Shown in pieces: positions 4,527 through 31,200 of a DNA stretch of 64,000 nucleotides. The notes beneath the pieces were generated by a model. It ran no database searches, was not told the origin of the DNA, and saw only the letters and a program-made list of their open reading frames with translations. Each line of letters starts with the position of its first letter. Positions within the stretch are counted from its first letter, which is position 1. Source of the DNA: Escherichia coli (GTDB taxonomy: Bacteria; Pseudomonadota; Gammaproteobacteria; Enterobacterales; Enterobacteriaceae); NCBI RefSeq assembly GCF_050920415.1, contig NZ_CP169309.1. The stretch is one strand, 5' to 3'. The position numbers and the translations under genes are program-made.

Positions 4527-4859
4527 TTACTGGCTGACTTTAATATCCTGTAATAAAGAAAGGTTGCCCTGCTGGACAAAATTAAACGCTACTTTGTCGC
4601 CAGTTTTAATTTCACTCATTTTCGTCTGCGGGGTGATGGTAAAGCGCATGGTCATCTCCGGCCAGTTCACTGCGGCAATCGGATCGTGGTGGATGGTGAT
4701 TTTTTTGCTTTCCAGATCAACACCTTTTACCACACCGGTGGCGCTAATAACCTGTGGTTGTGCTTCGCTCATGGTTTCATGATGATGTTCGTTAGCCTGA
4801 GCATTAAAGCCAATAACAGTAAACAGACTGAACATTGCAACTTGCAGTGCTTTTTTCAT
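4527..4859 (-). CDS. cusF: Periplasmic copper/silver chaperone CusF
   Basis: 110-aa ORF with signal peptide (MKKALQVAMFSLFTVIGFNAQA), His/Met-rich metal-binding region; operon position. Confidence 0.95.
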   Translation of the reverse strand: MKKALQVAMFSLFTVIGFNAQANEHHHETMSEAQPQVISATGVVKGVDLESKKITIHHDPIAAVNWPEMTMRFTITPQTKMSEIKTGDKVAFNFVQQGNLSLLQDIKVSQ

Positions 4860-4882
4860 TTATTCTCTCCTGGAGTTAAAAA

Positions 4883-6265
4883 TTATTGCTGCCAACCGCC
4901 ACCCAGGGCGGTATATAAGGAAACTTCGTTAACCTGACGGGCATAATTCAGGTCGAGTAAAGTTTGTCGGGTTGCAAATAAGGAACGCTCGGCATCCAGC
5001 ACTTCCAGATAACTTACCGCGCCGTGCTGATATAATGCCCGCGCCCGTTGCAAAGTAATTTGCAGCGACGCCAGATAACGCTGCTGGGCGCTGATTTGAT
5101 CGTTCAGGCTTTGACGTAATGCAAGCGCATCTGCCACTTCTTTAAAGGCGTTCTGAATTTTCTGTTCATAATTCACCACCGACTGCTGCTGGCGAATTTC
5201 GGCGATATCCAGATTGGCCTGGTTGCGTCCGGCATTAAAAATGGGGATCTCAATTTTGGGAATAAAATTCCACATCCCGCTGCTGGCGTTAAATAATGAT
5301 GACAGATCGCTGCTGGCGGTTGATATTCCACTGGTCAGGCTTATAGACGGGAAAAATGCCGCACGCGCAGCACCAATATTGGCATTAGCCGCCATTAACG
5401 CGTGTTCAGCTTCCATAATATCCGGGCGCTGCAATAAGATTTGCGACGACAAGCCCGCCGGTAATTTAACGCTTTGCAGGCTGTCGCTGTTTACTGTCTG
5501 CGCTTGCGGCAGCTTGCCGTAGTTTCCCAATAACAGTTGCAATGCATTATTCGCCTGCGCCAGTTCCCCCTGACGTTTAGCGATATCACTGCGGGTACTT
5601 TCTATCACCCCGCGAGCCTGTTCCAGCGCCAGAACATTGCTGCTACCGGTCAACAGTTGTTTTTCAACAAACGCATATGACTGCTGATAATTACGCAGCG
5701 TTTCTTCTGCTATTTGTAATTGCGCATAAGCCAGCTGCTGATTGAAATAGCTTTGCGCGACATTAGAAACCAGCAGAATATGCACCGCACGCTGAGCTTC
5801 CTCAGTGGCTAAATAATTTTGTCGCTCGGCTTCGCTCATGTTCTTTAAGCGACCGAAAAAATCGAGATCAAAGCTGGCGTTAAGGCCAGTCGAGAACTCC
5901 CGCGTCGTGGCTGAATCGCCTTTAAGATTGCCGCTCCAGCTGCCGCTACCCTCGCCATTGAGCTGCGGGTAGCGGTCGGCATCGGTCAGACGATATTGCG
6001 CCCGTGCCTCCTGCACTTTCAGCGTCGCCATGCGCAAATCCCGATTATTCACCAGCGCCTCGCTAATCAGCGTCTTCACCTGATTATCAACAAAAAAGGT
6101 GCGCCAGCCCGCGTTCTGGTAGTTATCTACCGCGTTAACCAGGCCGTTCTGGCTGAGTGAGAACTGCTGCGGCACGGGCATTGCCGGACGCTGATATTCC
6201 GGTGCCAGTGAACAACCGGTTAGCGCAAGGGCCACACAAAATGGCAGAAGTTTACAAGGAGACAT
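4883..6265 (-). CDS. cusC: Outer-membrane efflux channel CusC (TolC family lipoprotein)
   Basis: 460-aa ORF with lipobox (LALTGCSL); first gene of cusCFBA, divergent from cusRS. Confidence 0.93.
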   Translation of the reverse strand: MSPCKLLPFCVALALTGCSLAPEYQRPAMPVPQQFSLSQNGLVNAVDNYQNAGWRTFFVDNQVKTLISEALVNNRDLRMATLKVQEARAQYRLTDADRYPQLNGEGSGSWSGNLKGDSATTREFSTGLNASFDLDFFGRLKNMSEAERQNYLATEEAQRAVHILLVSNVAQSYFNQQLAYAQLQIAEETLRNYQQSYAFVEKQLLTGSSNVLALEQARGVIESTRSDIAKRQGELAQANNALQLLLGNYGKLPQAQTVNSDSLQSVKLPAGLSSQILLQRPDIMEAEHALMAANANIGAARAAFFPSISLTSGISTASSDLSSLFNASSGMWNFIPKIEIPIFNAGRNQANLDIAEIRQQQSVVNYEQKIQNAFKEVADALALRQSLNDQISAQQRYLASLQITLQRARALYQHGAVSYLEVLDAERSLFATRQTLLDLNYARQVNEVSLYTALGGGWQQ

Positions 6266-17859: not shown

Positions 17860-17904
17860 AGGGCAAAGCGGAAACAGATAAGACTGGCATAAATGAAGAA
17901 GAAA

Positions 17905-17949
17905 TGGCGCGCCCTGCAGGATTCGAACCTGCGGCCCACGACTTAGAAG
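17905..17949 (-). other. 45-nt 3' fragment of tRNA-Arg (argU): prophage attachment-site core (distal att)
   Basis: TGGCGCGCCCTGCAGGATTCGAACCTGCGGCCCACGACTTAGAAG is the reverse complement of the argU 3' end (T-arm, acceptor stem, CCA); identity stops after the anticodon-stem region, so it is a fragment, not a gene. Confidence 0.85.
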
Positions 17950-18371
17950 TTCCTAGAACGACATTTTAAGTCAACAAATTACCGCGCCATCTCTGCGCTC
18001 ACACGTCCCACTACCTCAAAACATGTAAAGCCTTGCAAGCCATTGTGAGGCCTTATGTGTCTCAGTTTTGTCCCTCTTTTTTGTACTAAAAAACATAGCA
18101 ATTGAGGATAAACCTCATGCTATTTTCGCTTATATGCCTTTAAAGGCATGGCGTTTAAATAGATAAAAACACCACAAAAGCATAAAAAACCACACAGTAA
18201 AACCGCAACATAAAACAATAACAGATAATTAAACCAAAAACAGATAGCGCATTGTGATAATCATTCAATACTAAACAAAATATAAACAGTGGAGCAATAT
18301 GTGATTGACTCATTAAGTTAGATATAAAAAATACATATTCAATCATTAAAACGATTGAATGGAGAACTTTT

Positions 18372-19325
18372 ATGCGGGCGAAACTTCTGGGAATAGTTCT
18401 GACAACCCCTATTGCGATCAGCTCTTTTGCTTCTACCGAGACTATATCGTTTACTCCTGACAACATAAATGCGGACATTAGTCTTGGAACTCTGAGCGGA
18501 AAAACAAAAGAGCGCGTTTATCTAGCTGAAGAAGGAGGCCGAAAAGTCAGTCAACTCGACTGGAAATTCAATAACGCTGCAATTATTAAAGGTGCAATTA
18601 ATTGGGATTTGATGCCCCAGATATCTATTGGGGCTGCGGGCTGGACTACTCTCGGCAGCCGAGGTGGCAATATGGTCGATCAGGACTGGATGGATTCCAG
18701 TAACCCCGGAACCTGGACAGATGAAAGTAGGCACCCTGATACACAACTCAATTATGCCAACGAATTTGATCTGAATATCAAAGGCTGGCTCCTCAACGAA
18801 CCCAATTACCGCCTGGGACTCATGGCCGGATATCAGGAAAGCCGTTATAGCTTTACAGCCAGAGGTGGTTCCTATATCTACAGTTCTGAGGAGGGATTCA
18901 GAGATGATATCGGCTCCTTCCCGAATGGAGAAAGAGCAATCGGCTACAAACAACGTTTTAAAATGCCCTACATTGGCTTGACTGGAAGTTATCGTTATGA
19001 AGATTTTGAGCTAGGTGGCACATTTAAATACAGCGGCTGGGTGGAAGCATCTGATAACGATGAGCACTATGACCCAGGAAAAAGAATCACTTATCGCAGT
19101 AAAGTCAAAGACCAAAATTACTATTCTGTTGCAGTCAATGCAGGTTATTACGTAACACCTAACGCAAAAGTTTATGTTGAAGGCGCATGGAATCGGGTTA
19201 CGAATAAAAAAGGTAATACTTCACTTTATGATCACAATGATAACACTTCAGACTACAGCAAAAATGGTGCAGGCATAGAAAACTATAACTTCATCACTAC
19301 TGCTGGTCTTAAGTACACCTTTTAA
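18372..19325 (+). CDS. ompT: Outer-membrane protease OmpT (omptin)
   Basis: 317-aa ORF matching OmpT (MRAKLLGIVLTTPIAISSFASTE...); lies between the att fragment and the tail-fibre remnants, i.e. inside the prophage. Confidence 0.96.
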   Translation: MRAKLLGIVLTTPIAISSFASTETISFTPDNINADISLGTLSGKTKERVYLAEEGGRKVSQLDWKFNNAAIIKGAINWDLMPQISIGAAGWTTLGSRGGNMVDQDWMDSSNPGTWTDESRHPDTQLNYANEFDLNIKGWLLNEPNYRLGLMAGYQESRYSFTARGGSYIYSSEEGFRDDIGSFPNGERAIGYKQRFKMPYIGLTGSYRYEDFELGGTFKYSGWVEASDNDEHYDPGKRITYRSKVKDQNYYSVAVNAGYYVTPNAKVYVEGAWNRVTNKKGNTSLYDHNDNTSDYSKNGAGIENYNFITTAGLKYTF

Positions 19326-19344
19326 CGAAGTTAACCAGATTTTC

Positions 19345-19381
19345 TCCCCGGTGGTATTGTATAACCCCGGGGAATTTGTTT
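19345..19381 (+). terminator. Intrinsic terminator after ompT
   Basis: Stem TCCCCGG / CCGGGGA with 16-nt loop followed by ATTTGTTT, 20 nt after the ompT stop. Confidence 0.55.
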
Positions 19382-19511
19382 ACAGTTACAAGTAGGCAAT
19401 ATCCACTAATTTTGTAAGCATTTAACCTATGTCATAACGTGTAATCTCTTACCGCAACACAAGACCTCAATATATTCAAATCTTATCTTTATTCCGATAT
19501 TCAGAGACACA

Positions 19512-20996
19512 ATGCGAAAAATAATCACTCATTTCAAAGTTGTTTTAACGTTACTTCTACCAGTAACCGTATCTGCCCAGCAGATACAGTGGCAATCCTG
19601 TATGGCCAGTCAATTCAACCACTGGTTTGGTGAGGAAAAACCGTCTCCTGACTTACTATGTGGTTATTTGTCTGTTCCATTAAAATATACAGACACAGGC
19701 GGAGATGCTTCTTATGAAAAAAAATCACAAGTCAAACTAGCGTTGACAAAATTGCCGGCAAAAAGCAAGCATAAAGGAAGTATCCTGATAATAAGTGGTG
19801 GTCCCGGGTTACCAGGCATAAATCCTTATATTAACTTTGACTGGCCAGTCACAAATCTTCGTGAGTCATGGGATATTATTGGATTTGATCCTCGAGGCGT
19901 CGGACAGTCCACTCCGACAATAAACTGCCGGCAATCAGATACAGAGACTCAGGAAAACATAACCGAAAAGCAACAAGTATTAAATAAAATTAATGCCTGT
20001 ATCCATAATACCGGAGCCGAAGTCATTCGCCATATCGGCTCTAACGAGGCTGTATACGATATTGATCGTATTAGGCAAGCCTTGGGGGATAAACAACTGA
20101 CAGCCGTGGCGTATTCGTATGGAACTCAAATTGCAGCCTTATATGCAGAACGTTTTCCCTACAACGTAAGATCTATCGTTCTTGATGGAGTCGTCGATAT
20201 CGATGACCTGGAGGACAACTTCACATGGCAACTCAAACAGGCACAGAGTTATCAGGAAACGTTTGATCGCTTTGCATCCTGGTGTGCGCGTACAAAAAGT
20301 TGCCCGCTTTCTTCAGACAGAGATAAGGCAATAACTCAGTTCCATGAGCTATTATCAAAATTACATCACAAACCTTTATTAGACAGTAAGGGAGAAAATA
20401 TATCTTCAGATGAACTCATATCATTAACAACAGACCTTCTGCTATGGCGTTCATCATGGCCAACCCTTGCAACTGCCATACGCCAGTTCTCTCAGGGGAT
20501 TGTCAGTAATGAAATTGAAACTGCGCTCAGTGCTCCGATAGCCTCAGAAGAGTCAAGCGATGCTTCGGGGGTAATCCTCTGTGTAGATCAGGGGGATGAG
20601 CAATTAACACCAGAAGAGCGAAAATCCCGAAAAGACGCTCTTGCGAATGCCTTCCCGGCTATTAACTTTGACAATGGACGTTCCGATTCACCTGATTTTT
20701 GTGAATTATGGCCAATACATAGCGACCTGAACAAAACTCGCCTGAAAAATACTGTTCTGCCCTCTGGTTTACTGTTTGTAGCACACAAATACGACCCAAC
20801 AACGCCCTGGATTAATGCCCGTAAGATGGCAGAGAAATTTTCCAGCCCGTTACTAACAATAAATGGTGATGGGCATACATTAGCTCTCACCGGAGTTAAT
20901 TTATGTGTAGATAAAGCAGTTGTACATTACCTGATCACTCCACAAAAAATAGAAAATATATACTGCCCAGGAAATTCTGAAGCAGAAATACAATAA
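19512..20996 (+). CDS. Secreted alpha/beta-hydrolase, TAP-like / S33 peptidase-like
   Basis: 494-aa ORF with signal peptide, GGPG motif (ISGGPGLPG) and nucleophile elbow AYSYGT; occupies the position where K-12 DLP12 carries appY. Confidence 0.6.
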   Translation: MRKIITHFKVVLTLLLPVTVSAQQIQWQSCMASQFNHWFGEEKPSPDLLCGYLSVPLKYTDTGGDASYEKKSQVKLALTKLPAKSKHKGSILIISGGPGLPGINPYINFDWPVTNLRESWDIIGFDPRGVGQSTPTINCRQSDTETQENITEKQQVLNKINACIHNTGAEVIRHIGSNEAVYDIDRIRQALGDKQLTAVAYSYGTQIAALYAERFPYNVRSIVLDGVVDIDDLEDNFTWQLKQAQSYQETFDRFASWCARTKSCPLSSDRDKAITQFHELLSKLHHKPLLDSKGENISSDELISLTTDLLLWRSSWPTLATAIRQFSQGIVSNEIETALSAPIASEESSDASGVILCVDQGDEQLTPEERKSRKDALANAFPAINFDNGRSDSPDFCELWPIHSDLNKTRLKNTVLPSGLLFVAHKYDPTTPWINARKMAEKFSSPLLTINGDGHTLALTGVNLCVDKAVVHYLITPQKIENIYCPGNSEAEIQ

Positions 20997-21018
20997 TTTC
21001 AAAATATTCCGCTATTTG

Positions 21019-21066
21019 CTCCCAATGCAAAACATATATTGCATTGGGAGCATATTCATATTTTTG
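21019..21066 (+). terminator. Candidate intrinsic terminator after the hydrolase gene
   Basis: Perfect 12-bp stem CTCCCAATGCAA / TTGCATTGGGAG with 8-nt loop, T-run 10 nt downstream. Confidence 0.4.
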
Positions 21067-21179
21067 TTATTATTGTATGAAATCGTCTCATGTACACGGT
21101 CCTTTTTTCGCCGAAAACTGATATTACTTTAATCAAAAGTTGACGTGCCAGATTCGAAGTAAATTTATAAAATATCAAA

Positions 21180-21485
21180 TCAATATACATTTTGCACCTT
21201 CGAGATAGTAATGACTGTTACTGTAACATGAGTTACAAACAGCTTCATACCCAGAGCTACTGATGTATCAACTCGATTCAACAATACCCGATATTTATTC
21301 CATGCCTCCAGCAACGATCTTTCTTCCTCCGTTGCGATTTCCAGATCTACAGCATCCTGCAGTGGCGCAATATACTCACTGAATTCCTGGATGTAGAACT
21401 GTGTGGTGACGGTCTTCCAGCCATTCGGCTCCTGCTGTATCGAAGCATACCAGGCTATTTCAATATCGCTATGCTGCGGCAGCAT
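21180..21485 (-). pseudogene. tfaX: Tail fibre assembly protein remnant (tfaX-like, C-terminal part only)
   Basis: 101-aa ORF whose middle ([38 protein letters not shown]) matches the C-terminus of the intact Tfa at 23996-24571; N-terminus unrelated. Confidence 0.7.
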
Positions 21486-21541
21486 TTAACCCCTTGTAAT
21501 TCATCGCCATAATTGATTTAATTCACAAATAAAACTATAAC

Positions 21542-22210
21542 ATGGTGAAATTAATGAAAAAAAACACAGATGATGGGGCTAAAATTTACACACCACTTAC
21601 CCTAAAGCTTTATGACTGGTGGGTTTTGGGAGTATCAAATCGGCTTGCATGGGGATGTCCTACAAAGGAACACCTTCTTCCACACTTTCTGGAACATTTA
21701 GGTAACAACCATCTGGATATTGGTGTTGGAACTGGGTTTTACCTTACTCACGTACCTGAGAGTAGTCTGATATCTTTAATGGATTTGAACGAAGCTAGCC
21801 TGAACGCGGCATCTACAAGGGCTGGGGAATCAAAAATTAAACATAAAATTAACCATGATGTTTTTGAACCTTATCCCGCGGCGTTACATGGTCAATTTGA
21901 TTCCATTTCCATGTTTTACCTTCTTCACTGCCTGCCTGGAAATATATCTACAAAAAGCTGTGTAATACGCAATGCGGCGCAGGCCTTAACTGACGATGGA
22001 ACTCTATACGGAGCCACAATTCTTGGCGATGGAGTTGTGCACAATAGCTTCGGTCAAAAACTGATGCGCATTTACAATCAGAAAGGCATCTTTTCAAACA
22101 CAAAAGATTCCGAAGAAGGCTTAACACATATACTCTCAGAGCATTTCGAGAATGTTAAAACCAAGGTTCAAGGTACTGTAGTAATGTTTTCCGCTTCAGG
22201 GAAAAAATAG
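21542..22210 (+). CDS. Class I SAM-dependent methyltransferase (ybcY-like)
   Basis: 222-aa ORF with SAM-binding motif I (LDIGVGTGFY); sits between two tfa homologues as ybcY does in DLP12. Confidence 0.6.
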   Translation: MVKLMKKNTDDGAKIYTPLTLKLYDWWVLGVSNRLAWGCPTKEHLLPHFLEHLGNNHLDIGVGTGFYLTHVPESSLISLMDLNEASLNAASTRAGESKIKHKINHDVFEPYPAALHGQFDSISMFYLLHCLPGNISTKSCVIRNAAQALTDDGTLYGATILGDGVVHNSFGQKLMRIYNQKGIFSNTKDSEEGLTHILSEHFENVKTKVQGTVVMFSASGKK

Positions 22211-22575
22211 CATCCAACCGCAGCACGTTCTTGCATAAGGCGTGTCTGCGGTTTTTCAACTATTCAGATACATCACTCCCATCACATTCATTCCTCCGCA
22301 TCATAGGCATATAGGCTATATCACCTTGATATTTTTCTTCTTCAGATAAAAACTGTTATCTATGTATACTTTTAAACCCAATCCGTGTAGAGTCTCTGCA
22401 TAAGATAGTTTGCAGTTGCCACTTCAGCTTGCGCCATAAACCGCCTGATTTTTGCCGCCACCTGTTAGCATTCCTGTATACCTGAAACGACAATGTTTAT
22501 CTACGAACTTTAAGAACACCCAGGATAAAAATTGTCAACTATATCATATATAACACATTACTAATTCGAGGCTAT

Positions 22576-22689
22576 ATGAACAGCATACTGATAATCACTT
22601 CTCTCCTTATCATATTCAGCATTTTTAGTCATGCCCTAATAAAATTAGGGATTGGCATATCCAATAACCCAGACAAAACCGATGTATAA
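22576..22689 (+). CDS. Candidate 37-aa hydrophobic membrane peptide ([37 protein letters not shown])
   Basis: Hand-translated small ORF with GAGG 4 nt upstream of the ATG; single predicted TM helix plus polar tail; AT-rich context. Confidence 0.3.
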
Positions 22690-22724
22690 GTCAACATATC
22701 CTGAATCAGACATACAATATCGCA

Positions 22725-22991
22725 ATGAAAATCAATAATATTTTAAGGAATATCTTCATGAAATCAAAAGACACCCTAAAGTGGTTCCCTGCGCAGCTTC
22801 CTGAAGTAAGAATTATCCTAGGGGATGCTGTAGTGGAAGTAGCAAAACAGGGAAGACCTATCAATACCAGAACATTGCTTGATTACATTGAAGGAAACAT
22901 AAAGAAAAAATCATGGCTGGATAACAAAGAATTATTACAAACAGCGATATCAGTTCTTAAAGACAACCAAAATTTAAATGGTAAAATGTAA
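22725..22991 (+). CDS. Hypothetical 88-aa protein
   Basis: Open frame in AT-rich cargo DNA upstream of the recombinase; no recognised domain. Confidence 0.35.
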   Translation: MKINNILRNIFMKSKDTLKWFPAQLPEVRIILGDAVVEVAKQGRPINTRTLLDYIEGNIKKKSWLDNKELLQTAISVLKDNQNLNGKM

Positions 22992-23307
22992 TATAATAAA
23001 CTTACTTTTTTATCATTTTTCCACTTTAACAACATTTTGCTCCACTTTTCCACGATCAAACAACTTGAAATCTGGTTAAAATAACACGCAACACTATTCT
23101 TCTTCCTTGAGTCCGCCCGGAACTCGAAAAACAAACCGAGTTAAAGCCATTTTTCACAAAATCGATTTTGGGTCTCACCAAAATTACGGGGTTGCATACG
23201 CATTCGTTTATTTTCGAACGTGTACATACAAATATGCACAAAAATAATCAAAATTATTTTCTGAGATGCATTATGATATGAACACCAATTTCGTATAGAG
23301 TCTCACT

Positions 23308-23898
23308 ATGTCTCGAATTTTTGCTTACTGTCGGATATCAACGCTGGATCAGACCATCGAAAATCAACGCCGGGAAATCGAAAGTGCAGGTTTTAAAATC
23401 AAACCTCAGCAAATAATCGAAGAACACATTAGCGGCTCAGCAGCAACCAGTGAGCGTCCTGGTTTTAACCGGTTGCTTGCTCGCCTGAAATGTGGTGATC
23501 AATTGATTGTGACAAAACTGGATCGCCTTGGTTGTAATGCAATGGATATCAGGAAAACAGTGGAACAACTGACCGAAACAGGTATCAGAGTGCATTGCTT
23601 AGCATTGGGGGGCATTGACCTGACCAGTCCAACAGGAAAAATGATGATGCACGTAATTTCAGCAGTCGCTGAATTTGAACGAGACCTTTTACTTGAACGC
23701 ACTCATTCCGGGATAGTAAGAGCCCGCGGCGCAGGGAAACGTTTTGGTCGACCACCTGTGTTAAATGAAGAACAGAAACAGGTGGTATTCGAACGAATTA
23801 AGTCAGGTGTAAGTATAAGTGCCATTGCCCGGGAATTCAAAACCTCGCGGCAAACCATTTTAAGAGCCAAAGCAAAACTTCAGACACCTGACATATAA
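23308..23898 (+). CDS. Small serine recombinase (resolvase/invertase family)
   Basis: 196-aa ORF; N-terminal catalytic motif YCRISTLDQ (Ser nucleophile), resolvase-type core and C-terminal HTH. Confidence 0.85.
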
Positions 23899-23995
23899 AA
23901 AATAATCTCGGTGTGAGATGCTTTACGTCTTCCAAGCCCCCTTCCTTGCCGTAAATGGAAAGATACATCTAATTATAGAATTTATATGTTTTACC

Positions 23996-24571
23996 CTACG
24001 GCAGTGCTGGCCATTCAATATCCTGTGCAGTTGACGTATCAACACGGTTCAGCAACACCCGATACTTTTTCCAGGCTTCCAGCAATGAGGTTTCTTCCTC
24101 CGTTGCGATTTCCAGATCTACAGCATCCTGAAGTGGCGCAATATGCTCACTGGCTACCTGCATCAGGCTGTTTTTTGTTTCTTCCGCCTCTCGGATCCGG
24201 AACAGTTTTTCTGCTTCTGCATCTTTCACCCAGGCTGTGCCGTTCCACTTCTGAAACTCCCCTTCCGGCGATAACCAGGTAACATTTTCCGGTAACGGAC
24301 CGAGTTCAGAAATAAATAACGCGTCCCCTGACGCTACGTCATAAACCGTTTTACCCCGATGGTCTTCAACGAGATGCCACGATGCCTTATCACTGTTGAA
24401 AACAGCCACAAAGCCAGCAGGAATATCTGGTGGTGCAATATCGGTACTGTTTGCTGGCAGACCTGTATGAGGCGGAATATATGCGTCACCTTCACCAATA
24501 AATTCATTAGTTCCGGCCAGCAGATTATAAATTTTTATGGTCCGTGGTTGTTCACTCATTCTGAATGCCAT
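23996..24571 (-). CDS. tfa: Tail fibre assembly protein Tfa
   Basis: 191-aa ORF immediately downstream of stf; lambda Tfa-like. Confidence 0.9.
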
Positions 24572-27537
24572 TATGCAAGCCTCACAATATAGTTAAATGC
24601 GATGTTTTTGACGGTGTTTTCCGCGTTACCAGCAGCGTTAACGGTGATGGTGTGTCCATGTGAACCAATCGCAACGGAGTGCGTATGAGCACCAATACCG
24701 ACAGTATGCGCGTGTGCACCTGCAGATGCTGCTGTGCCGGACAGTGAATGGCTATGATTACCATCTGTACTGGTATTCGCTAACCACCCCGTAGACATAC
24801 CTACTGAGCCTTGTACACCCCAGGTATTTTGACCTGAGCTTGTATAACCATATTGATAAGTATCTTTAAAAACACTGGGGTTAAATCGACGGCCATCTCT
24901 ATGGCTGTGATTACCAGCTGCATTCGTGCTGCCACTTAAACTATGGGTATGCGCACCAGTGTTATTCGTGGATTTAGTGCCGTAATCAAACGACGATGTG
25001 GTTTTCGTCCCCAAATCCGTACTGGATGCGCTGGCGCTGTGGGTATGCGATTTAATGCCGTCCTGTTCCTGAGACAATACGGCCCGACCACTGGCAGGTT
25101 TGCCCTTAATCGTCCAGCCACGCATATCAGGGATCACGCCTGACGGATAAGCGGCTGCAAGTTTCGGGTATGCAGATTTGTCAAAAGTCTGCCCCTGCAT
25201 CAGGGCATAGCCAGACGGAACGGTATCTGATGGCCACGGGATTGGTGCGCCAGGCGGATAAAACTGCTCTGATGGCGTATAGAGTGAATAAACTGTACCG
25301 TCCGTTAACCCTTCCGGCTTATTAGCAGAATATGCTGGTGACGTATGAATCGTCACGCTGGCATTACTGGTATAATCCCATTGAATATTTACACCAGTCG
25401 CATAATTTCCGATTGCAACGTAAATATCGTAAGTATCACCAGATGTATTGACCCAGGCAAAATTTGTAAACCCTGTCGATGTGCGCTGCCATAAAGCACC
25501 AGTAATCCCCTTCGGATTACCATTACCTGCACGTAAAACAAGTTCAGATATACCTGCCTGTTGAGGTGACCCCACGTTAAATCCAGCGCCACCAATCAAC
25601 GTAATTGAAACAACAGAACTCGCCTGTGGCATGGTTACCGTTGCTAATTTGAACCAACCAGCACCACCGCTGAATGACATTGTTGTTGAGTTAAGCGTAC
25701 CAATATCTTTCGGCGTCAGTGTTATATCCGCTGAAAGCGCCTTACCATTCACCTTACGGGCAGAAGGTACCCGACCATTCGCATTGTCATTAGCTGCTTT
25801 CACTGCTTTCGGTGTCGCAGCAAGCGTTTCAGATGTGCTGTTGGTTGCACTACTGAGCTGGACAATTCCTTTTTGTGCTGTCGTAGCGTCCTGTGCGGTG
25901 TATTTCCCGTTAGCCAGGTCATACGCGGCCTTAACGGCTTTTGGCGTTGCCGCCTGTGACTCGGAAGTGCTGTTAGTCGCACTGCTGAGCTGAACTATCC
26001 CTTTCTGTGCTGTCGTTGCATCCTGTGCGGTGTATTTCCCGTTAGCCAGGTCATACGCGGCCTTAACGGCTTTTGGCGTTGCCGCCTGTGACTCGGAAGT
26101 GCTGTTGGTCGCACTGCTGAGCTGTACTATCCCCTTTTTCGTCGTGCTCGCATCCTCAAGCGCCACGGCGGATGCAATATCCTCTGCCCGTTTTGCTGCT
26201 GTCTCGGCGCGCGTTGCCGCGGATTCCGCCGTACTTTTGCTCTGTGCTGCCGCTGCCGCACTGCCAGCAGCCTCTGTCGCCTTCGTGGATGCCGTCGTGG
26301 CGCTGCCCCTCGCTGCTGACGCCTGTCTGGTCGCCTCATCTTTTGAAGCAGACGCAGATGATGCCGATGACGCCGCCGAACTGGCGGACGATGCGGCAGC
26401 CGTTTTTGAGGATTCTGCGCTGGTTTCCGACGCTTTCGCGTTCGTTTCGGATGTCTTCGCTGCGGAAGCAGACCTCGCTGCTGCGCTGGCCTGTTCAGTG
26501 GCTTCGCCAGCCTTCGTTGTGGCTGTTGAAGCGGATGATGCGGCGCTTTCTGCCGATTTTCCGGCGGCGGTGGCACTGACTGCTGCCTCCTCTGCCTTAA
26601 TGGACGCCTCACGGGCCGATGATGCAGCTGCTGTCTCAGAGTCTGCCGCAGCTGAGGCGCTCTGTTCCGCTGCCGTTTCAGAAGACCTGGCATTCGTCTC
26701 GGACGTTTTTGCCGCCTTCACGGAATTTCCTGCCGCCGTTGCCGAGGAGGCTGCACTGCTGGCGCTTGTGGAGGCGTTCGTTTCTGATGATTTTGCCGCC
26801 TCTTTGGAGGCCGCCGCATCTCTGGCTGAAGTGGCGGCTTCTGACGCTTTCGTCGTCGCAGTGGATGCAGAAGTGGCTGCTGATTTTTGTGACGCTGCAG
26901 CATTCGTTTCTGACGTTTTCGCCGCACCGGCACTGGTGGCCGCCGCGCTTTTTGAGGACTCTGCAGCGGCAGCACTTTTTGATGCTTCAGTGGCCTTTGT
27001 TGATGCCGTTCCTGCGCTGGAAGACGCCTCCTGAGCCGAAGTCGCGGCCTGTCCGGCTGACGTGCTGGCTGCACGCGCTGAGCCTGCAGCATCAGTCGCA
27101 TGGGTTGCCGCCTCACGGGCAGATGTGCCGGCATCACTGGCTGACTTCTTCGCGGCTGCCGTGTTCTGTGCCACCGCGGACGCGTTACGCGTCACCTCTT
27201 CCACCATCAGTTCAAAACGGCGCAGAGCCTCCGGACGGGCATCATCCTCCGTCATGGCACCGAGAAAATCATTCAGCGTACCGGGTCGGGAATCTTCATA
27301 CACGGTGATGGTCCCGGCATGTGACGGCGGGAATCCTTCCACCAACAGAATAACGCTGTACTGACCGTACTCAACGTCCATGCTGTAACGCCCGGCTTCA
27401 TCCGGATTTTCTGAGGCCAGCGTGTTCACCACCACCGTGGTGCTGTTACGTTTTGCTTTCAGCTGGATTGTGCAGTTCTGTACCGGTTTTCCTGTGCCGT
27501 CTTTCAGTACACCTGAAATCTTTACTGCCATATTCAC
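24571..27537 (-). CDS. stf: Side tail fibre protein Stf (long form, Ala/Ser/Thr-rich repeats)
   Basis: 988-aa ORF after lom; conserved phage tail-fibre N-terminus ([17 protein letters not shown]...), internal 44-aa tandem repeats, C-terminal receptor-binding region. Confidence 0.9.
25795..26165. repeat. Approx. 132-bp tandem direct repeats (about 3 copies) inside stf
   Basis: Near-identical DNA blocks encode repeated [44 protein letters not shown] units; boundaries approximate. Confidence 0.7.
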
Positions 27538-27595
27538 CCCACAAAAAAGCCCGCCTGAACCGGCGGGCTGTCATAACACTGTGTTACCTGGCTAA

Positions 27596-28195
27596 TCAGA
27601 ACTTATAACCGACACCCACGATGAAACCGTCAGTGCGCCAGTCGCCACTGCCGGAGCCTTCATAAGCAATATCAATGGCCACGGATTCGGTCGGGTTAAA
27701 CTGCACGCCAGCTCCCCACGCCAGAGACGTGTTGCTGTGGCGACCGTCATCACTTCCGGTCAGCACGTCGTGCGTTTTCCCCTTGTTGTCAGTTACGCGG
27801 AGATAATCCCCGGAGAAAGTCGACACACGGCTGTAAGCCACACCCGCCATCGCATACGCGCTGAACCATTCATTCACGCGCACAGACGGCCCCGCCATTA
27901 CGCTGAACCAGCGGTTACGAACGGAATCTTCATGCCAGCGAGTATCGCTGTAATGGGTCAGCTGGCGATTCTTGTCTCCTGCATAGCTGAATGACGTCAC
28001 CAGCCCCAGCGTATCCGTAAACTCATAACGGTATTTCACGTTAATCCCGTTCAGATCATCACTGCCGGGAACGTTGGTCCGGGCATGAAGATACCCCGCG
28101 CTCAGCGTGGACTGATGTTCAGACGCCCATGCAGGCGCACCGGATACGGCCAGACAAATGGCTGCGGACAAAATGGCGGCACAAACTTTACGCAT
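27596..28195 (-). CDS. lom: Lom outer-membrane protein (Ail/Lom family)
   Basis: 199-aa ORF with signal peptide, near-identical to lambda Lom; canonical position after J. Confidence 0.92.
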   Translation of the reverse strand: MRKVCAAILSAAICLAVSGAPAWASEHQSTLSAGYLHARTNVPGSDDLNGINVKYRYEFTDTLGLVTSFSYAGDKNRQLTHYSDTRWHEDSVRNRWFSVMAGPSVRVNEWFSAYAMAGVAYSRVSTFSGDYLRVTDNKGKTHDVLTGSDDGRHSNTSLAWGAGVQFNPTESVAIDIAYEGSGSGDWRTDGFIVGVGYKF

Positions 28196-28265
28196 AATTA
28201 CCTCTCGCTTTTCTGCAATAAAAAAGGCGTCATTCCTGACGCCATTTATTGGGGTTATAAATATT

Positions 28266-31200
28266 TCAACGAATACTGATGCCGGAAGCCGCTTTTTTGG
28301 TCACAATCACCGTACAGTCGGTGATATTGCCTGCCCCCTGATTGCCTTTCTGGAAAATCTTAAACTCCAGAGTGACGCTACCACCACCACTAGGCATATC
28401 AATAACTGCACTGTAACTACCGGGAATGGCCCCTTTAGTTTCTCTGGATGCGATTAATACGCCGTTTTTGCGAACTTCAAAACCATAACCCGTGTATCGC
28501 GTGCCTCCTGGGTTATTTCCGCTCCCCGGATCGTCATACGCTATACCGTTAAAAATAATGGGCGGAATAATAATCTGGCGGTCAAAGTTATGATCATCGC
28601 TGATGGTGACTGTAACCGTACCGTTTGGTGTTTCCGTGTTACCCCACGTACCGACTTTTTTCGGGAAGGCTTTTGATACAGCTTTAACGAAATCCCCTCT
28701 GACCTGGGTCGCCTCCAGCATGCCCTTAATCGTACAGTTTTCATTTACCGTGACATTGTTGAGCGTTCCTGAGTTCGCATTCACACTACCACTGATATCC
28801 GCATTTTTAGCGGTCAGCTTTCCGTCTGATGTCAGGGAAAATACCGGAGGACTGCCACCGCTGGTAATGGTGGGGGCTGTCAGGCGCTTCAGGAACACGT
28901 CGTTCATGAATATCTGGTTGCCCTGCGCCACAAACATCGGCGTTTCATTCCCGTTTGCCGGGTCAATAAACGCGATACGATTGGCGGCAACCAGAAACTG
29001 GCTCAGCTTGCCTTCCTCCGTGTCCTCCATGCTGAGGCCAATACCCGCGACATAATGTTTGCCGTCTTTGGTCTGCTCAATTTTGACGCCCCACATAGCA
29101 TTCCATTTATCGTTAGCGTCCTTCCACTCTTTCGAAAACTCATCCAGTCTGCTGGCGTTATCCTCCGTCAGGTCGACTTTTTCCAGCAGCTCTTTACCGA
29201 GATGGGATTCGGTTATCTTGCCTTTGAAAAAATCCAGGTAACCTTCCGCATCATCGCTCGCCCGACCGACGGCCTCCACGAATGCCGATTTGCCAACGGT
29301 GTTCACACTGCGGATATAAAAGTAATAATCATGGCCCGGTTTGATATTGATACTGGCGGCTATCCAGTACAGCCCCGTGCCAAGGTAGCGGGCTGTGGTT
29401 TCAACCTGCCTGATATCGGTAATCCGCGTTTCCGAGAACCAGAACTCAAACTGTACCGTCGGATCATAAACCGCAAGATGCGGCGTGGCGGTTATCTGAA
29501 AATAGCCCGGCGTCAGCTCAATCCGCGACGGCGCTGCCGGGGCGGCAATCCGGAACGATACCGACGCCGGATCGCCCTGCTGTCCCCGGGCATTTACCGC
29601 TCGGACCGTCAGCGTGTAACGCCCCAGCGTCAGTTGCCTGAAGCGGTAAGTGGTTTCCGTCGTCCGGGCCGTGCTGACCAGCCGCTCACTGCCGTCATCG
29701 GCGGCCACGGTCAGGCGAAGCATAAAGCTCACGCCCTTCACCACCTTCGGCGTATCCCAGCGCGCCAGCACCTGGTATTCCCCGCTGTCTGCGGTGACTT
29801 CGGCGGTCAGGTGCTGCACCGCTGGCGGCGTGACACCATTCACCGTGCCGCTCTGGTCGCCGTCAAAGTGCGCCCCGTTATCCACGATGGCTTCTTTTTC
29901 CGGTACATGCTGCACGGCGGTGATGGCATACGTGCCGTCGTCGTTCTCACGGATACTCACGCAGCGGAACAGGCGCTGGCGCAGCGTCGGCAGCTTCAGC
30001 CCCCACACGCTGTATTCAGCAACGCCGTCAGGAACACGGCTCACTTTCACCTTCACGCCGTCGGTGACGGACTGAACCTCCACGCTGACCGGATTGCCAC
30101 TTCCGTCAACCAGGCTTATCAGCGTGGTACCGGAGGATGGCAGCGTGATTTCACGGTCGAGCGTCAGCGTCCGGGTCTGGCTGTTTACCGCCAGCACGCG
30201 ACCACCGGTGCTGATACCGGCATAGTCATCATCGCAGATTTCAATGACATCGCCCGGTACATGGCGAAGCCCTTCAGCACCCACGCTGAAGTCCACGGTC
30301 TGCGTTTCCAGCAGTTCCGTTTTAATCAGCCACAGCCCGGCGCGGTGCGCCTGCCCCCGGCTGGTACAGCCAAAGGCATCCATCTTCGTGACGTTACGAC
30401 CGTAACGGGCAATGGCCTGCGCATCTTCAACAAGCTCTGTCGCCGTCTCCCAGCCGTTATCCGGGTCAATCCAGTTCACCTCAACGGCATTATGGCGGTC
30501 CTTCAGGGCGCTGAAACTGTAGCGGAACGGCGCGCCATCATCCGGCATCACCACATTACTGCGGTTATAGGTCCACACCTTATCTGATGGTCGGTCCTGC
30601 ACGAACGTCAGCGTCTGCCCGTTCCATACCGGCATACAGCGCATCGCCGAGCAGAAATCACTGAGCACATCCCACGCCTTACGCTGCGTGGTCAGGTAGG
30701 CATTACAGGTGATGCGCGGCTCCGTGCCGCCAAAACCGTCCGGCACTGACTGGTCGCAGTACTGGCCGATGACATACAGCGCCCATTTATCCACATCCGC
30801 CGCACCAAGACGTTTCCCCATGCCGTAGCGCGGATGGGTCAGCATATCCCACAGACACCAGGCCATGTTGTTGCTGTATGCCGGTTTAAACGTTCCGTCC
30901 CAGATACCGCTGTATTGCCGCGTCTGCGGGTTATAGTTCGACGGCACCTGCAGAATGCGCCCGCGCAGATGATAATTACGGCTCACCTGCTGGCTGCCGA
31001 ACTGCTCCGAATCCACCTGCACGCCGACCAGTGCCGTGTTCGGGTAGCCCTGTTTCACATCGATGATTTCGGTGTATGACGACCAGAGCGTTTTGTTCTG
31101 CAGCTGGTCTGTGGTGCTGTCCGGCGTCATCCTGCGCATCCGGATATTAAACGGGCGCGGCGGCAGGCTACCCACCACCACCGAGGCCAGATACTGCGAG

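Follow-up and report, generated by a model that had tools for sequence, protein, structure and literature searches.

The locus analysed here raises the question of why the 3′ end of a tail fibre assembly gene should occur twice, in the same orientation, on either side of a methyltransferase, two small ORFs and a serine recombinase, and whether that recombinase has any part in the repetition. Analysis of the 64-kb stretch of DNA (the window) indicated that it contains an E. coli lambdoid prophage of the DLP12 type at the DLP12/ompT locus. It carries head, tail and stf genes and seems to be complete. A tRNA search for an att site found none within the 64-kb window, and the prophage end was set at 17903, the point where homology to phage ev243 stops. 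The features that bear on the question are as follows.

17903–21256, unstranded: rest of the b-region block (att-side end at 17903, ompT, an alpha/beta hydrolase and flanking DNA as far as the tfaX joint), placed by phage homology
21180–21485, minus strand: TfaX-type chimeric ORF or pseudogene, 101 aa, with an orphan 5′ part (21399–21485), a tfa 3′ fragment and unrelated read-through after 21261
21261–21392, minus strand: left repeat copy, 44 codons corresponding to Tfa residues about 137–180, the sole tfa-homologous part of the tfaX relic
21542–22210, plus strand: class I SAM-dependent methyltransferase YbcY (b0562; RefSeq; Pfam Methyltransf_12/23/25/11; phrog_2132, function unknown)
22216–22256, plus strand: terminator hairpin and T-run directly 3′ of the methyltransferase stop codon, the joint of two modules
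22576–22689, plus strand: small hydrophobic protein of the YnaM/YnfT family, 37 aa (RefSeq; NCBIfam NF041477, 63.9 bits, cutoff 35)
22725–22991, plus strand: 88-aa ORF, YdfK/YnaE cold-shock protein (RefSeq start 22758, 77 aa; phrog_2718)
23308–23898, plus strand: PinQ/PinR-type small serine recombinase, 196 aa (phrog_125, DNA invertase)
23996–24571, minus strand: intact lambda-type tail fibre assembly gene tfa, 191 aa (phrog_105), whose 3′ part holds the right repeat copy
24032–24163, minus strand: right repeat copy, within tfa, found by repeat search and by BLAST against the left copy
24571–27537, minus strand: side tail fibre gene stf, cognate to tfa (RefSeq: prophage tail fiber N-terminal domain-containing protein)

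A preliminary description of this DNA had proposed direct repeats of 85–90% identity, and these are real: BLAST against the whole 64-kb window aligned 21261–21392 with 24032–24163 without gaps at 114 of 132 nt (86.4%; E = 2e-41), so that the similarity clearly holds at the DNA level. The intervals originally given, 21264–21380 and 24047–24163, lie inside these repeats, but with the register shifted by about 12 nt between them. A repeat search returned a wider match (21247–21392 and 24018–24163, 84% over 146 nt), which BLAST trims. The copies share one orientation at an offset of 2771 nt, their longest exact run is 40 nt (21320–21359 = 24091–24130), and they are the only two copies that BLAST finds in the window. 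RefSeq and protein profiles also bear out the genes described between them, namely the methyltransferase, the 37-aa and 88-aa ORFs and the small serine recombinase. Over their 44 codons the copies differ with a dS of 0.47 and a dN/dS of 0.17, and because of this dS they are anciently diverged tfa alleles rather than a target duplication. The left copy is 83–89% identical to the resident tfa, to K-12 tfaD and to tfaR alike, the resident gene being no closer than the others.

The interval between the repeats consists of parts of two blocks, a b-region block and a module of the Rac/Qin type, that meet at the terminator hairpin of the methyltransferase. Positions 17903–22251 (ompT, hydrolase, tfaX and methyltransferase) are 99.7% identical to phages ev243 and PhiR26_1, and this block is found without any recombinase in ev243, 2G7b and PhiR26_1. 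The segment from 22202/22214 to 24756 (ynaM, ydfK, pin and tfa) has 98% DNA identity to K-12 Qin and Rac in the same gene order. Homology to ev243, 2G7b, PhiR26_1 and K-12 DLP12 stops at 22251 and that to Rac, Qin and Tritos begins at 22202–22214, the two blocks overlapping in the hairpin only. On the other side of tfaX, homology to K-12 and Kati runs out at 21256, the hydrolase being replaced there by appY. The pin block accompanies the hydrolase in the window and in phage Turner, and appY in Kati; PhiR26_1 has the hydrolase and K-12 has appY without it. The methyltransferase and tfaX occur without pin in K-12 DLP12 and in phages ev243, 2G7b and PhiR26_1, while Rac, Qin and Tritos have the pin block and neither the methyltransferase nor tfaX. 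Since modules thus occur in varied combinations with sharp homology breaks at the same positions (21256, 22202–22251, 24009 and 24106), these positions qualify as joints of phage mosaic modules.

We consider it likely, with a probability of roughly 0.85, that the locus reflects ordinary and already known phage mosaicism and that two distinct tfa alleles are represented in the repeats by their conserved 3′ ends; as part of the same explanation, the repeats would have no present function and the neighbouring recombinase would not act on them. We propose that one allele is the tfa of a functioning stf–tfa pair in the lambdoid prophage at DLP12/ompT, while the other, tfaX, would be a decaying relic in a conserved b-region (methyltransferase, tfaX, hydrolase or appY, ompT and att). 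The DNA between them would be two independent modules side by side, the methyltransferase with its terminator, always found with tfaX, and pin–ydfK–ynaM, which goes with a lambda-type stf–tfa in Rac and Qin. General homologous recombination among lambdoid phages and prophages, mediated by RecA or by phage functions of the Red/RecET type, would have made this arrangement and may still be reshuffling it, the probable crossover patches being the core of 40 identical nt near the 3′ end of tfa, the terminator hairpin (22216–22253) and the last tfa codons. We infer this recombination pathway, as well as the order of events in terms of gain versus loss of the pin block; the K-12-type arrangement could itself be the product of losing the block and need not be the state to which it was added.

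The most instructive comparison is with DLP12 of K-12 (tfaD–ybcY–tfaX–appY–ompT), which occupies the same locus and likewise has tfa, a convergent class I methyltransferase and a tfaX oriented as tfa, divergent from ybcY on its ompT side. The ybcY/tfaX DNA is 97% identical over 21256–22251, and ybcY by itself also has 97% nucleotide identity. K-12 differs from the window in that its methyltransferase is a pseudogene, its tfaX carries W62*, 36 bp stand in place of pin–ydfK–ynaM, and appY replaces the hydrolase. The tfaX and ybcY genes of K-12 are what is left of an arrangement that is widespread and that plaque-forming phages still carry in intact form. Rac (stfR–tfaR–pinR–ynaE–ynaM) and Qin (stfQ–tfaQ–pinQ–ydfK–ynfT) resemble the window in DNA (98%), gene order and the distal hairpin, the ydfK/ynaE gene also having 98% nucleotide identity to both copies. 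In contrast to the window, the module there ends at the prophage boundary without methyltransferase or tfaX, and consequently there is no direct repeat. As for K-12 PinQ and PinR, to which the recombinase has 98% and 99% aa identity, pin is flanked by tfa on one side and by ydfK/ynaE and ynaM/ynfT on the other, and pin–ydfK–ynaM accompanies a lambda-type stf–tfa not only in Rac and Qin but also in several phages.

Exchange within the repeat is evident from the tfaX alleles themselves. Compared with K-12, the window allele is 99.0% identical over 21313–21520 and only 73.7% identical over 21256–21312, where mismatches mostly fall 3 nt apart, and the cargo differs on each side. The alleles are mosaics whose ancestry switches at about 21307–21312, inside the repeat. 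Furthermore, among 5,426 complete E. coli genomes, nine have the order gpJ–lom–stf–tfa–appY–ompT, in which a hybrid tfa, itself intact, directly adjoins appY; the last 35–45 nt of this tfa and its downstream flank are of the tfaX type, and two different crossover points are represented. Together with the mosaic alleles, these recombinants argue strongly for natural general homologous recombination within the repeat, although the nine may instead represent an ancestral-like state and not have arisen by deletion; the junction that a deletion would create with the hydrolase-side flank of the window itself was found in 0 of the 5,426. By experiment, lambda exchanges DNA with Rac and Qin in stf/tfa through Red-beta-dependent relaxed homologous recombination between sequences 88–96% identical (PMC3945230). 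The mosaic joints of lambdoid phages with defective prophages described by De Paepe et al. (2014; PMC3945230), with exchange in stf/tfa homology of 88–96% containing short perfect stretches, are matched here by the 40-nt perfect core, the mosaic tfaX and the hybrid tfa. Unlike in that work, our evidence is comparative sequence only, and the homology patch, at 132 nt, is shorter than those tested experimentally.

Recombination within tfa as a route of module acquisition, as first suggested, is thus in keeping with the tfaX mosaics and the hybrid tfa, but the further idea that a single cargo cassette of methyltransferase, small ORFs and recombinase entered in one such event and left a remnant behind is unlikely. 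It draws on the fact that the whole interval is bounded by tfa-homologous DNA and is conserved as a unit at 100% in about 310 genomes and phage Turner, the region being 100% identical in many E. coli chromosomes. What already contradicts it is that the two sub-blocks are distributed independently, the methyltransferase–tfaX pair without pin and the pin block without both, and that homology switches sharply inside the interval at 22202–22251. Across the 5,426 genomes, the K-12-type tfa-to-methyltransferase junction without pin was counted in about 2,241, the ev243-type junction in 404 and the window-type junction in 316.

It is very unlikely, in our view, that pin–ydfK–ynaM is a self-mobilising cassette or, in a milder version, that the tfa 3′ core and the hairpin form a selected 'docking platform'. 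In the former case, the cassette would be moved between the stop codon of tfa and the terminator hairpin by Pin, a type of recombinase so far known only to invert the e14 P segment in trans, by way of cryptic sites unlike the hix/gix/pix consensus; in the latter, lambdoid phages would swap fitness or anti-phage cargo there. We do not favour either version because the K-12 site represents a replacement and not a clean insertion, because the right edge of the cassette varies and because no sites were found. At the 'empty' K-12 site, 36 unrelated bp take the place of the 1,757-bp pin cassette, hence the replacement, and the right edge lies at 24009 in some genomes and at 24106 in Tritos. Nor does the interval look like a cassette flanked by a target-site duplication, as the copies are 86% identical with a dS of 0.47 and there is no clean empty site.

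The role in inversion or excision initially suggested for the recombinase fares no better, and a site-specific switch or mobile cassette, in which the PinQ/PinR-type enzyme would act at sites near the repeats to invert, excise or insert either the block or just its own pin–ydfK–ynaM cassette, strikes us as highly improbable. Such a role is made conceivable by the position of an intact serine recombinase, assigned to the DNA invertase PHROG, beside tail-fibre genes, as in Mu, P1 and e14, by a cassette left edge that is always the same hairpin, and by the finding that PinQ is an active invertase, which reportedly inverts the e14 P segment in trans (PMC12529663). In the same work, however, probing with Qin and Rac sequences revealed inversions in e14 alone (PMC12529663), and the repeats here are direct and diverged. 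A scan with the 26-bp consensus found no hix/gix/cix/pix-like site with at least 14 of 20 consensus positions, and no half-site with at least 9 of 10, in 20000–28500, and the e14 pix sequence derived from K-12 is absent from the window with up to 3 mismatches allowed, whereas crossover sites were clearly seen in the e14 control. The best consensus match in the window, 16/20 at 29413 inside gene J, was taken as chance. Short inverted repeats around pin are 11–20 nt long and at chance level; the best placed of them, 22242–22255 with 23874–23887, is complementary at 12 of 14 positions. The replacement at the K-12 site and the variable right edge also speak against a switch or mobile cassette.

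Din-family segments (Mu G/Gin, P1 C/Cin and e14 P/PinE) share with the window a small serine recombinase beside tail-fibre/tfa genes and a second tfa-related sequence nearby. The window differs from them in having direct rather than inverted repeats, no alternative stf C-terminus, no 26-bp crossover sites, a recombinase only 38% identical to PinE, and three unrelated genes between the recombinase and the second tfa copy. That second fragment, of 44 codons, lies on tfa's own strand with no adjoining stf-like sequence, and not, as in a Din-type segment, as a second set of stf C-terminus and tfa in opposite orientation. The repeat in tfaX is a scar of gene shuffling between phages and not a switch or mobile element; more generally, without inverted crossover sites, a serine recombinase beside a repeated tail-fibre sequence is no ground for assuming an invertible switch.

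That the left copy is a tfa remnant, as had been proposed, is well supported. The resident Tfa has 95% aa identity to the lambda-type Tfa of HK630, and its C-terminal residues 126–191 match Mu Tfa U (PDB 5YVQ_B). In the tfaX ORF, which has a PHROG of its own (phrog_2341), the tail fibre assembly profiles phrog_105/188/136 match residues 29–77 only, and the left copy thus lacks the combination of a fibre-specific N-terminal part and a conserved C-terminus that marks a full-length Tfa (Caudo_TAP/lambda Tfa). Its first 61 aa are identical to K-12 TfaX (b0563), and RefSeq lists 21180–21392 as an incomplete tail fiber assembly protein. A protein search found no longer parent for the N-terminal 41 aa, the matches being ORFs of 22–71 aa only, from Escherichia, Shigella and Citrobacter. 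Phage Ayreon was considered as proof of a separate N-terminal module and dropped, as it is of the K-12 type with most of the methyltransferase deleted. Independent lesions have struck tfaX elsewhere, namely W62* in K-12 and Kati, Q33* in Kati and a frameshifting 7-bp deletion in 2G7b, and we regard it as a decaying relic of a second tfa gene. The ORF is intact and in frame, at 101 aa, in the window, ev243 and PhiR26_1, and it might therefore conceivably have a function in these lineages. This intactness, the separate PHROG family and a reported sigma-70 SELEX site between ybcY and tfaX in K-12 (PMC3946193) would suit a functional mini-protein that keeps the conserved C-terminal Tfa helix region, e.g. 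to disturb the fibre assembly of other phages, with selection on it accounting for the persistence of the repeat; we give this little credence in view of the independent nonsense and frameshift lesions, the unrelated read-through that forms the C-terminus of the window allele, the N-terminus without homologue in any longer protein and the lack of a PADLOC match. In the least probable account, the 3′ end of the resident tfa was tandemly duplicated in place and cargo then inserted between the two copies. This would fit their shared orientation and reading frame only 2.8 kb apart, but their dS and dN/dS speak for a long period of divergence in separate functional genes constrained at the protein level, and the left copy resembles the resident tfa no more closely than it does tfaD or tfaR.

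All features of the region have already been annotated, and the locus has little importance beyond correct annotation, although it shows how E. coli lambdoid prophages may reshuffle cargo downstream of side tail-fibre genes via a few short conserved patches. With respect to the cargo, the methyltransferase, intact here, gave weak PDB matches only (UbiG and juvenile-hormone acid methyltransferase, E about 1e-3) and a marginal match in PADLOC (mad2, E 7e-4), where the search for defence systems returned no match for the recombinase, YdfK, YnaM or TfaX. The terminator hairpin has a fold energy of −22.3 kcal/mol (z −4.1), is followed by UUUUU and occurs with four different sets of flanking sequence. 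Within about 50 bp of it lie three or four independent breakpoints, which could hint at something more specific than general recombination and selection for intact genes.

A lambdoid prophage occupies the DLP12 locus here, and the process behind its repeat arrangement is ordinary lambdoid mosaicism. Every feature was already present in the RefSeq annotation, as follows:

envY, ompT, then an alpha/beta hydrolase
21180-21392, minus strand: tail fiber assembly protein, incomplete
21542-22210: class I SAM methyltransferase (Methyltransf_12/23/25/11)
22576-22689: YnaM/YnfT protein, a 37-aa ORF (YnaM_YnfT by family scan)
22758-22991: YdfK
23308-23898: recombinase (DNA invertase PHROG)
23996-24571, minus strand: tfa (tail fibre assembly PHROG), after which come stf, lom and gpJ

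The same core is found in K-12 MG1655 under the names tfaD, ybcY (the methyltransferase, as a pseudogene), tfaX, appY and ompT. In K-12, pinQ/pinR and their neighbours are likewise annotated. Many E. coli chromosomes match the 3.8 kb around the repeats at 100% identity, and at least 80% of this stretch is present in 310 of 5,426 complete genomes. The lambda-type Tfa of phage HK630 shares 95% identity with the resident Tfa; the methyltransferase shows weak similarity only, to small-molecule O-methyltransferases. On the att side the prophage ends at 17903, where homology to the free phages ev243 and PhiR26_1 stops, 14 bp from the ev243 integrase stop codon; ompT, the hydrolase, tfaX and the methyltransferase are thus phage-borne cargo. 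ARAGORN found no tRNA in the window.

A repeat search of the window returned a direct repeat, 21247-21392 versus 24018-24163 (84% over 146 nt), which BLAST against the whole window trimmed to 21261-21392 versus 24032-24163 (132 nt, 86.4% identity, ungapped, same orientation, E 2e-41) with only these two copies of the tfa 3' repeat. The repeat reported in the preliminary description is therefore real; its intervals (21264-21380 and 24047-24163) lie inside the BLAST-defined copies, though shifted against each other by about 12 nt. Between the copies, the listed ORFs match their earlier description. The longest perfect match is 40 nt (21320-21359 = 24091-24130). A recent local duplication could be proposed as the source of the two copies; however, their 18 nucleotide differences, with dS 0.47 and dN/dS 0.17, indicate that divergence accumulated while both sat in functional tfa genes, which argues against it.

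The left copy is, as had been supposed, a tfa relic: of the 101-aa ORF, just 44 codons resemble tfa. All 61 residues of K-12 TfaX are identical in this ORF, and its N-terminal 41 residues matched, in a protein search, only Enterobacteria ORFs of 22-71 aa. Lesions recur elsewhere (W62* in K-12 and phage Kati, which also has Q33*, and loss of 7 bp in phage 2G7b), and the ORF is decaying.

The interval between the copies had been viewed as a single acquired cargo block, and this part of the interpretation did not stand: it comprises two juxtaposed modules, whose homology blocks meet only at a hairpin and occur separately. Blocks were mapped against K-12 DLP12, Rac and Qin and phages ev243 and 2G7b, and then Tritos, Kati and PhiR26_1. 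The b-region of ev243 and PhiR26_1 is 99.7% identical to window 17903-22251 (99.4% in 2G7b), and in all three phages ompT, hydrolase, tfaX and methyltransferase are present and the recombinase is absent. The Qin and Rac modules (ynfT/ynaM, ydfK/ynaE, pinQ/pinR, tfa) are 98% identical to window 22202/22214-24756. Overlap of the two blocks is restricted to the hairpin at 22216-22253 and the T-run that follows, together a terminator (22216-22256, -22.3 kcal/mol, z -4.1) directly 3' of the methyltransferase stop codon. DLP12-type phages, Rac and Qin share this hairpin, whose flanks take four different forms. In K-12 DLP12 the tfaD stop leads through 36 unrelated bp directly to the hairpin, so the 1,757-bp pin block (the recombinase and two small genes) is absent there. 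Three to four independent homology breakpoints lie within ~50 bp of the hairpin, which thus acts as a mosaic joint that is used repeatedly.

Every combination of the modules is found among isolated phages: hydrolase with the pin block in Turner (99.8% identity over the whole 3.8 kb) and without it in PhiR26_1, appY with the pin block in Kati and without it in K-12, and the pin block beside a different fibre module and an integrase in Tritos. Junction-specific counts in 5,426 genomes gave 2,241 with the K-12-type junction (tfa to methyltransferase, no pin block), 404 with the ev243-type and 316 with the window-type (methyltransferase to pin block). The methyltransferase and tfaX are accordingly an old, widespread pair, and the recombinase with its two small genes is a separate module.

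Recombination within tfa, the other part of the earlier interpretation, is borne out. Between window and K-12 tfaX, identity is 99.0% over 21520-21313 and drops to 73.7% over 21312-21256, where mismatches are mostly three apart; this change occurs immediately distal to the 40-nt perfect core. Past 21256 homology ends and the cargo differs, hydrolase in the window versus appY in K-12. We searched the 5,426 genomes for the expected products of recombination between the two copies. None carried the product with the window's hydrolase-side flank; nine carried the appY-side arrangement, gpJ-lom-stf-tfa-appY-ompT, lacking methyltransferase and tfaX, with an intact hybrid tfa of 191 aa that ends in SVAPDIEWLIQP and is joined directly to appY (e.g. 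E. coli CFIAFB20190172 and SFE8, 4855-5430 in the extracted loci L014 and L015, respectively). Two types can be told apart by their crossover points, each of which is distal to the K-12 nonsense codon. The nine genomes either arose by deletion or are related to the ancestral arrangement; whichever their origin, the tfa 3' homology has served for exchange. In the window tfaX allele tfa homology ends before the conserved C-terminus, so a crossover there would put an unrelated tail on Tfa, which may explain the missing hydrolase-flank product. Such exchange has been shown by experiment: lambda swaps DNA with Rac and Qin inside stf/tfa through relaxed homologous recombination that depends on Red-beta, between sequences 88-96% identical (PMC3945230).

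We rejected a recombinase-driven element. The recombinase is 98% identical to K-12 PinQ and 99% to PinR, and only 38% to PinE. One study reports that PinQ, acting in trans, inverts the P segment (1,797 bp) of e14; when genomes were probed with Qin and Rac sequences in that work, e14 was the only place where inversions turned up (PMC12529663). The inverted repeats or crossover sites that the preliminary description had raised did not appear: inverted repeats around pin were at chance level, a consensus scan of 20000-28500 gave no classical invertase crossover site, and the e14 pix sequence, which stood out in the K-12 control, had no match in the window. The flanking repeats are direct and diverged, and the site without the pin block is a replacement, not a clean insertion. 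Hence, we see no evidence for Pin acting on the 21261-24163 interval. The best Din invertase consensus match in the window (29413-29438, 16/20 specified positions, inside the gpJ gene) is probably due to chance.

Several further features were observed. In ev243, 2G7b, Tritos and HannyBb a different side-fibre module is joined to a 98-nt orphan tfa 3' fragment (window 24009-24106; 5102-5199 in L003 and up to 5907 in L010, two comparison loci), with the break always at 24106; its occurrence both with and without the pin block suggests one old event, reassorted later. Phage Ayreon (L008 3509-3850) retains a tfaD-type 3' fragment, the hairpin, the last methyltransferase bases and a tfaX 5' piece, a further decay state of the K-12-type arrangement in which most of the methyltransferase is lost. 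The hydrolase (19512-20996, 494 aa, secreted-looking), situated between tfaX and ompT where K-12 has appY, matches phrog_20134 and the PADLOC candidate model C3a206 'TAP-like protein' (E 6e-57), and just past it lies a terminator-like palindrome (21014-21055; 17-nt arms, 94% complementary, 8-nt spacer). Within stf, 25775-26170 consists of three tandem 132-nt (44-codon) repeats with 63-77% identity to the first copy.
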